DNA from: a virus
Taxonomy: Duplodnaviria; Heunggongvirae; Uroviricota; Caudoviricetes
Virus record (IMG/VR): IMGVR_UViG_3300028805_000051
Location: 107,394 to 171,393 of that record
Reading direction: 5' to 3' (one strand)
DNA: 64,000 nt
The translations under genes and the position numbers were made by a program. The notes beneath the pieces are model-generated. The model was not told the origin of the DNA and ran no database searches. It worked only from the letters and a program-made list of their open reading frames with translations. Below, one piece after another: positions 54,499 to 54,650 of this stretch (its first letter is position 1; each line of letters starts with the position of its first letter).

Positions 54499-54650
54499 TG
54501 CGGGATGGAGCAGTGGTAGCTCGCAAGGCTCATCTACGGAGAAAACCGATTATAAATCACAGTTTCTGCGTCAGGAAGAGTGACAAAGTGGTTCAATGTC
54601 CACGGCAGAAATCAACCTTGAGGTCGTGGGTTCGAATCCCACTCCCGCAA
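54499..54650 (+). tRNA. intron-containing tRNA (CAU anticodon; Met or Ile2 type) with an insertion of about 80 nt in the anticodon loop
   Basis: Acceptor, D-arm and T-arm are all well-formed: tgcggga tg gagc agtggta gctc g, then caagg ctcat[80 nt]aa ccttg, then aggtc gtggg ttcgaat cccac tcccgca a. The insert contains a T-arm-like hairpin, gtgg ttcaatgt ccac. Confidence 0.6.

Follow-up and report, generated by a model that had tools for sequence, protein, structure and literature searches.

A two-module intron with a tRNA mimic in the anticodon loop of a phage tRNA(CAU) gene

The 64,000-nt stretch of phage DNA analysed here (the window; positions 107,394 to 171,393 of IMG/VR record IMGVR_UViG_3300028805_000051) carries a tRNA(CAU) gene whose anticodon loop is interrupted by an intron of 80 nt. 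The intron is built of two modules: a 5′ module with an N-UA start, a short hairpin (H0) and an A/U-rich spacer, and a 3′ module with a tRNA mimic and a terminal C. Judging from its sequence, it belongs to a known but unexplained kind of phage tRNA intron. The plan shared across this family and the mimicry of ordinary tRNA 3′ junctions appear to be new observations. Our preferred reading, to which we assign a probability of about 0.5, is that of a mobile, protein-processed intron which sets its own splice sites and which would be cut at its 3′ end by an RNase Z-type enzyme, the exons being sealed by an Rnl2-type ligase.

The interrupted tRNA(CAU) gene and the anatomy of its intron

The positions of the exons and of the intron elements are as follows.

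54499-54650, plus strand: tRNA(CAU) gene, with an 80-nt insert between nucleotides 36 and 37
54499-54533, plus strand: exon 1, TGCGGGATGGAGCAGTGGTAGCTCGCAAGGCTCAT; acceptor 5′ strand, D-arm, anticodon-stem 5′ strand and loop nucleotides 32-36 (CTCAT)
54534-54613, plus strand: 80-nt intron, type A megaphage tRNA intron; boundaries from the intron-less homologues in L002 and L008 and the family rule N...C
54534-54536, plus strand: intron nucleotides 1-3, a variable N (here C) followed by invariant UA; the N-UA start is family-wide
54537-54548, plus strand: H0 hairpin CGG-AGAAAA-CCG, hexaloop A-GAAA-A (GNRA-like); all members show it in their MFE folds
54549-54561, plus strand: single-stranded A/U-rich spacer, AUUAUAAAUCACA, including UAAAU; a spacer is common to all members
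54562-54569, plus strand: P1 5′ strand, GUUUCUGC, of the acceptor-like stem of the tRNA mimic; its partner is 54605-54612
54570-54584, plus strand: P2, D-arm-like hairpin GUCA-GGAAGAG-UGAC with GG in the loop; a (U)GG arm or bulge is found in every member
54588-54603, plus strand: P3, T-arm mimic GUGG-UUCAAUGU-CCAC; loop UUC(G/A)A, innermost G:C invariant
54605-54612, plus strand: P1 3′ strand, GCAGAAAU; pairs with 54562-54569
54613, plus strand: terminal unpaired C, the last intron nucleotide, mimicking C74 or a discriminator; the 3′ splice site follows directly
54614-54650, plus strand: exon 2, AACCTTGAGGTCGTGGGTTCGAATCCCACTCCCGCAA; A37 and A38, anticodon-stem 3′ strand, variable loop, T-arm, acceptor 3′ strand and A73

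The original prediction held that a tRNA(CAU) gene was split by about 80 nt placed between CTCAT and AA of the anticodon loop. The length proved to be exactly 80 nt (54534-54613), and removal of the insert left a perfect cloverleaf. The location was likewise confirmed by two other viral contigs, L002 and L008, which contain intron-less homologues; because the anticodon loop of these reads CTCATAA, the position of the insert between T36 and A37 is unambiguous. Exon 1 ends with ...CAAGG-CTCAT and exon 2 begins with AA-CCTTG. When the exons were joined, ARAGORN reported a tRNA-Met(CAU) with a 7/4/5/5 cloverleaf in which all stems are fully paired, with CAAGG/CCTTG as the anticodon stem and a 7-nt anticodon loop. 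The T-stem GTGGG/CCCAC is a marker of the window's tRNA(CAU) allele; C74 is at 54651 and CCA is not encoded. The alternative that the two flanks derive from separate genes was discarded, as the exons pair perfectly with each other and match intron-less single genes.

The gene was overlooked by default ARAGORN and by the Rfam tRNA model, which detected 27 and 26 tRNAs, respectively, elsewhere in the window. ARAGORN in intron mode placed a tRNA at 54499-54651 with an 80-nt intron, the placement of the intron being arbitrary in this output. We take the A11:U24 pair and the weak U1-A72 pair of tRNA(CAU) to resemble those of bacterial initiator tRNA; at position 1-72 the tRNA(CAU) of contig L001 has U.U. 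The tRNA as a whole is also similar to bacterial tRNA-fMet. Going by the sequence and by known identity elements, this is probably the initiator tRNA of the phage.

The genome is TAG-recoded: long ORFs fill the region from 9 to 30 kb once TAG is read as sense, and the window encodes a tRNA(CUA). The GC content of the window is 28-36%. The tRNA genes form an array at 38-63 kb in which small ORFs are interspersed. Their products include an HNH endonuclease, YqeY, a DUF2828/DUF7788 protein (phrog_850, ‘RNA-binding protein’), a transposase-like protein and an HD protein similar to the HD domain found in CCA-adding enzymes. A candidate for a free-standing, arm-less tRNA-like element was noticed near 38803-38857. 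The HNH DNA endonuclease gene (41518-42111) has a homologue in L047, and the only proteins common to the intron-bearing loci were the HNH endonuclease homologue and the DUF2828 protein.

Folded alone, the window intron adopted a single dominant structure (−19.3 kcal/mol, 60% of the ensemble, z = −2.2). The T-arm-like hairpin that had been noticed within the insert was found at 54588-54603 (as DNA, GTGG TTCAATGT CCAC). The accompanying suggestion of a nested tRNA-like module was borne out beyond the T-arm, the resemblance extending to a whole acceptor/D/T ‘top half’. The 8-bp acceptor-like stem of the mimic corresponds to 7 bp plus an N-1:N73 pair, and its stack with the T-arm comprises 8 + 4 bp and one bulged G. 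The 3′ module is best read as a copy of a phage pre-tRNA minus the anticodon arm.

We searched the region 54400-54750 with cmscan against 4227 Rfam families. At E ≤ 10 only tRNAs were returned, and the insert matched no intron, ribozyme, tmRNA or Y RNA; the small ribozymes (hammerhead, twister, twister-sister, pistol, hatchet, HDV-like and hairpin) were absent from the output for this region. The sequence also contained no CUGANGA...GAAA core. At gathering thresholds the whole window gave tRNAs only, and so did five related loci. The comparison with covariance models of known intron classes, proposed along with the prediction, thus returned no match for the insert (Rfam, E ≤ 10), and the judgement that the insert is too small for a group I intron stood, given its 80 nt and the lack of a match to Intron_gpI.

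A common plan among phage tRNA introns

The structured family to which the window intron belongs (type A) comprises 11 sequences of 65-114 nt in six tRNA types from TAG-recoded jumbo phages and megaphages. Its members were recovered by pattern scans and intron-mode ARAGORN, and the Lak introns were taken from Devoto Table S6. A near-identical intron was found in the tRNA(CAU) of L001 and L049, with 2 substitutions that both keep P1 paired. The exons of this gene, on a contig of 372 kb, differ from those of the window at 7 positions; the differences between the window and L001 are compensatory, and the cloverleaves stay perfect. The near-identity of the window and L001 introns could mean recent transfer; if so, the compensatory exon changes would be no proof of selection on the interrupted gene. 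A tRNA-Thr(UGU) intron was present in L005, L047, L048 and L051 (contig of 244 kb). Its 26-nt 5′ part is identical to that of the window's Met intron, and its 3′ part is different but isostructural and covarying. L009 contained three more introns, in Thr, Asn (65 nt) and Ala tRNAs. In our own comparison, the Lak introns in Tyr/Asn, Phe, Thr and Gly tRNAs share the plan of H0, spacer, mimic and C with the window intron. The Thr genes of Lak-A1 and Lak-C1 differ solely by an insert of 114 nt, present in one of them and placed precisely between T36 and A37 without duplication. Two further introns (type B) have the same N-UA start, but their 3′ domain is a 13-bp hairpin.

All 13 inserts (11 type A and 2 type B) are oriented with the sense strand of the tRNA and lie in the anticodon loop, where their removal restores a loop of 7 nt. 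As the same insert occurs at the same site in homologous and in non-homologous tRNAs on other contigs, its presence is not due to chance. The related contigs measure 244-372 kb, and a nucleotide search of the phage collection detected no relative of the window region. Exact and degenerate pattern scans found the window-type 5′ module only in Met and Thr introns of a few related contigs; matches in L003, L004 and L050 lay in coding sequence and were dismissed as chance. Our structural descriptor scans were noisy in AT-rich DNA and yielded no new members.

Each of the 11 type A sequences, folded separately, gave the common plan. N-UA opens 11/11 type A and 2/2 type B introns. It is followed by H0, a hairpin of 3-5 bp whose loop is A-(G/A)NNA-A in most members and whose stem covaries (CGG/CCG, CAGG/CCUG, ACAG/CUGU, CAAUC/GAUUG, CAAG/CUUG and CAGUG/CACUG). 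An A/U-rich spacer of 9-13 nt containing UAAA(U/A/C) is present in all members, and the sequence of the 5′ module as a whole varies widely across the family. The closed domain then consists of the 8-bp P1, an arm or bulge containing GG, and the T-arm, and it lacks an anticodon arm. The exception is the Lak Thr intron, whose domain is a complete tRNA with a full D-arm and an anticodon arm. The T-stem usually has 5 bp and stacks straight on the P1 3′ strand (8 + 5 = 13 bp); the T-loop reads UUC(G/A)A in 11/11 members, over an invariant innermost G:C like G53:C61. The last intron nucleotide is C in 11/11, and the last nucleotide of exon 1 is U, A or C across the family.

Base pairing was counted on explicitly parsed segments, because MAFFT could not align the 5′ modules. 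Covariation was strong: P1 was paired in 88/88 cells of the 11 sequences, with 21 extra pair types, and pairing reached 93% in the T-stem and 100% in H0. In none of 2000 partner shuffles was the observed pairing of P1, T-stem and H0 attained. Close variants differ by three substitutions, of which L001 has two and L048 one; each lies in P1 and leaves its pairing intact.

Ordinary tRNA genes of these phages have 3′ ends that match the end of the intron. The genes ending in N73-C74 followed by A or T numbered 26/27 in the window, 18/19 in Lak-A1, 12/13 in L009 and 17/19 in L047, and their 3′ ends encode no CCA. An N-1:N73 pair can form in 22/26, 14/18, 8/12 and 13/18 of them, respectively. With this pair and C74, the 8 bp plus C before A or U of the intron corresponds to an ordinary pre-tRNA junction in these phages. 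The predicted 3′ splice site is exactly where the encoded tRNA of an ordinary gene ends. The intron moreover has the traits of an RNase P/RNase Z substrate, namely an acceptor-like stem stacked with a T-arm, a UUCRA loop, a D-loop GG and a terminal unpaired C.

The Asn introns bear on what defines the splice sites. The GU(U/A) genes in L009, in Lak (‘Tyr’) and at 42182 of the window have a type I body and G73, and these features identify the three as Asn(GUU) and not bacterial-type Tyr genes. If the ends of the intron are taken as constant, the insertion in the Asn genes lies between nucleotides 35 and 36, and not between 36 and 37 as elsewhere. The splice sites therefore appear to follow the intron and not a ruler on the tRNA body, from which we infer that the intron, and not the host tRNA, sets them.

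The sequence (C)TAACAGAGTAAACTGT(T/A)TAAATCA, which is the 5′ module in the Lak Phe and L009 Asn introns, recurs between the genes of 25 other viral contigs as a 24-nt element that hardly varies. These contigs are smaller and unrelated and contain 1-3 copies per locus. The copies lie downstream of terminator-like hairpins and 2-60 nt upstream of an ATG, and the element looks like a phage promoter or 5′-end element. In L056 it is followed by a small three-way-junction RNA and a T-tract. The 24-nt motif was not found in 185,579 bacterial and archaeal genomes. When the stem positions of the intergenic motif were left free, a scan returned the same ACAG/CTGT copies and otherwise chance matches in AT-rich sequence, and so is silent on covariation at the intergenic sites. 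The H0 stems of the introns covary, which argues for an RNA hairpin, a reading that sits uneasily with the promoter-like context of the intergenic copies. A role of H0 as a general promoter or leader of phage tRNA genes was rejected, since the window has one copy and 49 kb of Lak-A1 have none outside introns. A scan of the window for the H0 module gave 7 weak matches, compared with 10 in shuffled sequences.

Proposed processing and rival explanations

In the reading that we prefer, the intron would be removed from the RNA and the exons joined at ...GCAAGGCTCAT/AACCTTGAGGTCGTGGG (the slash marks the junction). The 3′ cut would fall after the first unpaired nucleotide behind the acceptor-like stem and would be made by an RNase Z/BN-type trimmer of CCA-less pre-tRNAs; the CCA-less tRNAs of T4 require RNase BN/Z. 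RNase P would be able to release the mimic at the mimic's 5′ end, and mascRNA is an example of a tRNA-like module excised by RNase P and RNase Z. The 5′ site lies 3 nt upstream of H0 and would be cut by a hairpin-guided endonuclease, which may come from the host (RNase E/G/Y type) or from the phage. An RNase E-type preference would agree with the invariant U at +2, but this is only a lead. The exon ends would carry a 3′-OH and a 5′-P and would be held together by the tRNA body, and an Rnl2-type, ATP-dependent RNA ligase would probably seal them. The element would spread as a mobile intron. The annotation of Lak-A1 includes a T4 Rnl2-type ligase and a CCA-adding enzyme (PMC6784885); a term search of the supplementary files found no RtcB and no polynucleotide kinase among the Lak-A1 annotation matches listed (PMC6784885). 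Among the window ORFs that were scanned, no RNA ligase gene, RNase gene or EndA/Sen domain was detected.

Some points count against this reading. No known enzyme accounts for the 5′ cut, and RNase P would cut downstream of the 5′ splice site, at a distance of 28 nt, so that H0 would stay attached to exon 1. RNase Z usually cuts after N73, whereas the cut required here lies after the position that mimics C74, one nucleotide off the usual site; an RNase Z cut fits only if the 8-bp stem counts as the acceptor stem and the C hence as the discriminator. As to the ligase, T4 Rnl2 favours nicks in duplex RNA over nicks in anticodon loops. The interrupted tRNAs could be dispensable, because intact paralogues or isoacceptors exist.

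The original prediction had left the choice between self-splicing and processing by the host. Processing by host or phage enzymes fits the anatomy best, and self-splicing lost ground, as no ribozyme family was matched and the conserved unpaired bases are tRNA-like. We nevertheless considered four other explanations. A mobile DNA cassette that is not spliced at all, consisting of a promoter-like module and a gene for a small tRNA-like RNA that landed in a redundant tRNA gene, is in our estimate rather unlikely. The outer tRNA would then be a pseudogene or a source of tRNA halves, and the product would be a tRNA-like RNA freed by RNase P and 3′ processing. This explanation draws on the recurrence of the Lak Phe/L009 Asn 5′ module as a promoter-like element in 25 contigs and its place before a small RNA and T-tract in L056, on a TATAAAT about 6 nt upstream of P1 in the window intron, on the further CAU and GUU tRNAs encoded in the window, and on the possible free-standing element near 38803-38857. 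It is opposed by the free covariation of H0 within and between genomes, which indicates an RNA hairpin and no sequence-specific DNA site, and by the lack of further copies of the module, both in the rest of the window and in 49 kb of Lak-A1. Nor would it account for the sense orientation, the anticodon-loop location and the restored 7-nt loop of 13/13 inserts, or for exons that form perfect cloverleaves and differ between window and L001 in a compensatory manner; in addition, a sigma-70 scan, though hardly informative, called no promoter at the window intron. We consider it unlikely that the intron is excised by a dedicated phage splicing endonuclease which recognises H0 and the mimic. Such an enzyme would be metal-independent and leave 2′,3′-cyclic phosphate and 5′-OH ends, to be joined by RtcB or by Pnkp plus Rnl. 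The intron-defined sites and the invariant N/N-UA-hairpin and C/A junctions do suggest specific recognition, and the pre-crRNA processing by Cas12a and Cas13 offers a precedent for a hairpin-guided upstream cut. Jumbo phages often encode RtcB, Rnl1/Rnl2 and end-healing enzymes (PMC7824862). However, no candidate nuclease was noticed beside the introns, near which only HNH DNA endonucleases recur, and the Lak-A1 annotation matches listed include Rnl2 but neither RtcB nor polynucleotide kinase.

A new small self-cleaving or self-splicing ribozyme, with the 5′ module and the 3′ domain as the catalytic core for one or both junctions, seems to us quite unlikely. The compact conserved fold, a GNRA-like loop that could dock on a helix, invariant nucleotides at both junctions and a 26-nt 5′ module that is identical in Met and Thr introns while the remainder diverged are what one might expect of it. 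Yet no Rfam ribozyme model matched at E ≤ 10 and, junction nucleotides and H0 loop aside, the unpaired positions that are conserved belong to a tRNA elbow (T-loop and GG) and do not look like an active site. The wide variation of the 5′ module across the family and the two unlike 3′ domains behind one start (type A mimic and type B 13-bp hairpin) also disfavour a ribozyme, and the 65 nt of the L009 Asn intron are very small for one acting at two sites. Least credible, and in our view highly improbable, is a known type of intron, either a degenerate group I intron or an archaeal/eukaryal bulge-helix-bulge (BHB) intron cut by an EndA-like enzyme. These share with the inserts the anticodon-loop location, which is that of bacterial group I tRNA introns and of BHB introns. 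A group I intron would measure at least 200 nt and not 80 nt, Intron_gpI gave no match, and the terminal nucleotide is C and not G in 11/11 members, after 5′ exons that end in U, A or C. The sites lie between nucleotides 36 and 37 or 35 and 36, and not between 37 and 38. As to the BHB motif, inspection of the folds showed that the 8 nt preceding the 3′ site pair with the 5′ strand of P1, 28 nt inside the intron, and not with the 5′ splice-site region; no 4-bp helix can therefore link two 3-nt bulges. The group I and the BHB readings are both already contradicted by the features tested.

Relation to known systems and significance

Short tRNA introns of this kind have been reported before. Devoto et al. 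(2019) described ‘enigmatic’ introns in tRNAs of Lak megaphages which belong to no Rfam class and one of which contains a tRNA (PMC6784885), and according to a survey of 2026, 77% of the jumbo phage genomes with alternative codes contain tRNA introns, which ‘could encode another tRNA’ (PMC13037316). The expectation that the insert would be unusual for a phage therefore did not hold as regards rarity, and the intron is unexplained rather than unprecedented. In the literature searched we found no paper proposing an architecture or mechanism for these introns. Like the Lak-type introns, the window intron is a short non-group-I insert in an anticodon loop of a TAG-recoded huge phage and matches no Rfam class; some Lak-type introns ‘may encode a tRNA’, and they are identical across cohorts with presence/absence polymorphism. 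Unlike them, it resides in an initiator-like CAU tRNA and has a 5′ module of different sequence, in a different lineage with a GC content of 30-36% compared with about 26% in Lak.

Group I introns occupy anticodon loops in cyanobacterial tRNA-Leu, in tRNA-fMet and in Patescibacteria (PMC13011429). Anticodon-loop location, mobility and precise presence/absence are common to both kinds, but the window intron has no P1-P9 core, no terminal G and no U.G pair at the 5′ site, and is at most one third of the minimal size. The accepted tRNA introns of bacteria and their viruses are so far limited to self-splicing group I introns, and tRNA splicing by enzymes counts as an archaeal and eukaryotic process. 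The latter, which depends on BHB motifs, EndA/Sen and RtcB or Trl1, is probably alike in outline, with cuts by an endonuclease followed by an RNA ligase. The differences are that the present introns contain no BHB, that intron structure would set the sites and that the ends may be 3′-OH and 5′-P.

An embedded mimic of acceptor, T-arm and elbow also marks processing sites in mascRNA (MALAT1), in the t-elements of plant mitochondria and in the tRNA punctuation model. Here, in contrast, the mimic lies inside another tRNA and its flanks would need to be re-ligated; we know of no precedent for re-ligation around an excised tRNA-like module. Maturation and repair of T4 tRNAs likewise involve CCA-less phage tRNAs and phage ligases (Pnkp plus Rnl1) that reseal a break in the anticodon loop, although that break is made by a host defence nuclease and no intervening sequence is removed. 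The tRNA-like domain of tmRNA and YrlA (Y RNA) resemble the mimic in having an acceptor stem, a T-arm and a reduced D region and in lacking an anticodon arm, whereas the window intron has no tag reading frame, no Ro-binding terminal stem and no Rfam match.

It is possible, though tentative, that these introns form a new class of ribozyme-free mobile tRNA intron in which the mimic recruits RNase Z/BN and RNase P, the hairpin directs the other cut and a phage ligase reseals the tRNA. The common plan makes the ‘enigmatic’ introns testable, as it predicts the splice-site nucleotides, the enzymes (RNase Z/BN, RNase P and Rnl2) and the chemistry of the ends. Because default tRNA finders miss the split genes, the tRNA sets of recoded phages, and the decoding capacity inferred from them, are under-counted; the gene missed here is probably that of the phage's initiator tRNA. 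If the proposed processing is true, bacteria or their viruses would for the first time be seen to splice tRNA by a protein-only pathway, and the introns might serve as a timing device for the tRNA supply of stop-codon-recoded phages.

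Type B intron and other unusual tRNA genes

A second split tRNA gene of the window, for tRNA-Asn(GUU), is interrupted at 35|36 by an intron that we designate type B.

42182-42321, + strand: split tRNA-Asn(GUU) gene
42218-42283, + strand: its type B intron, 66 nt
2284-2425 of L001, another viral contig: homologue

The type B intron begins with the same N-UAC-hairpin as the type A intron of the window, the hairpin loop being GUAGUU, and continues with a short hairpin, a perfect hairpin of 13 bp with a GUGA tetraloop at its tip and, finally, AC (z = -3.6). A related intron of 68 nt is held by the tRNA-Thr of L001 and L049, the two viral loci with a near-identical type A intron in tRNA(CAU). 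An HNH endonuclease ORF (41518-42111) lies directly upstream of the split tRNA-Asn(GUU) gene.

Other tRNA genes of the window also have unusual features.

62374-62494, + strand: 121-nt tRNA (Rfam, 51 bits)
40273-40359, 41332-41418, 49531-49619, 59664-59749 and 38632-38720: tRNAs of 86-89 nt with long variable arms, for Asp(GUC), Lys(UUU), Met(CAU) and Cys(GCA)

In the 121-nt tRNA the D-arm is type II-like, the anticodon arm is odd in having a 4-bp stem and a 9-nt loop (CCUUUGGAA), and the variable-arm region is longer by about 50 nt. When introns are allowed, ARAGORN reads the same gene as Pro(UGG) with a 37-nt intron. Long variable arms are unusual for the four specificities listed, and the gene call at 38632-38720 has a 4-nt anticodon (gcug).

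Besides the Thr intron, the 244-kb contig (L005/L047) contains two tRNAs with inserts of a kind that differs from the other introns, as well as a permuted tmRNA gene.

L047 4144-4269 and 6057-6180, - strand: tRNAs with ~50-nt inserts
L005 1775-2030, - strand: permuted tmRNA gene (Rfam RF04321, 69 bits)

tRNA 3' ends and tRNA-like elements

N73-C74 followed by A/T is encoded by 26/27 tRNA genes in the window (38.6-62.9 kb), and by 18/19 in the Lak megaphage Lak-A1 (L091), 12/13 in L009, a locus with type A introns in three tRNAs, and 17/19 in L047; nearly all of these genes encode only the first C of CCA. In all four, N73 is usually pairable with the nucleotide preceding the tRNA, mostly as U:A.

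Two sites at which the tRNA finders make no call are possible free-standing tRNA-like elements.

~38803-38857, + strand: ATTCCTAG...CAGG-TTCGACC-CCTG-CTAGGAAT + C + AA
51457-51530, + strand: TGGGGTG...GTCGG-TTCGATT-CCGAC-CACCCCA

The former shares the ending '8+5 bp + C' with the intron tRNA mimic, and its MFE fold is unconvincing. Just downstream of the latter is a transposase-like ORF (51684-52481, phrog_10081).

A 24-nt intergenic motif

Except for one additional T, the 24-nt motif (C)TAACAGAGTAAACTGT(T/A)TAAATCA agrees with the Lak Phe intron in its 5' module. The core used for searching, ACAGAGTAAACTGT...TAAATC, is common to the motif and the Asn intron of L009. The motif recurs intergenically, upstream of small ORFs, in 25 smaller viral contigs (L053-L077), and was not found across 185,579 bacterial and archaeal genomes.

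L065 3385-4308: example locus with three copies

In L056 the motif is followed by a small RNA that forms a three-way junction, and by a T-tract. In its intergenic setting the motif looks like a promoter.

Recoding and protein genes of the window

The phage reads TAG as sense: long ORFs at 9000-30000 are seen only with this reading, and the window encodes a suppressor tRNA.

30117-30188, - strand: suppressor tRNA(CUA)
34932-35441, + strand: HD-domain protein; CCA-adding/repair enzymes have a weakly similar HD (phosphoesterase) domain
43444-44757, + strand: 437-aa protein matching DUF2828/DUF7788 and phrog_850 'RNA-binding protein'

The ORF upstream of and overlapping the HD-protein ORF (34448-34939) had no family match. 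The DUF2828/DUF7788 gene is located centrally within the tRNA array. Its product had no sequence match in the PDB; its 41 relatives come from other large phage contigs, frequently with adjoining tRNA arrays. The protein is possibly Ro/TROVE-like, and such a kinship would connect it with tRNA-like partner RNAs.
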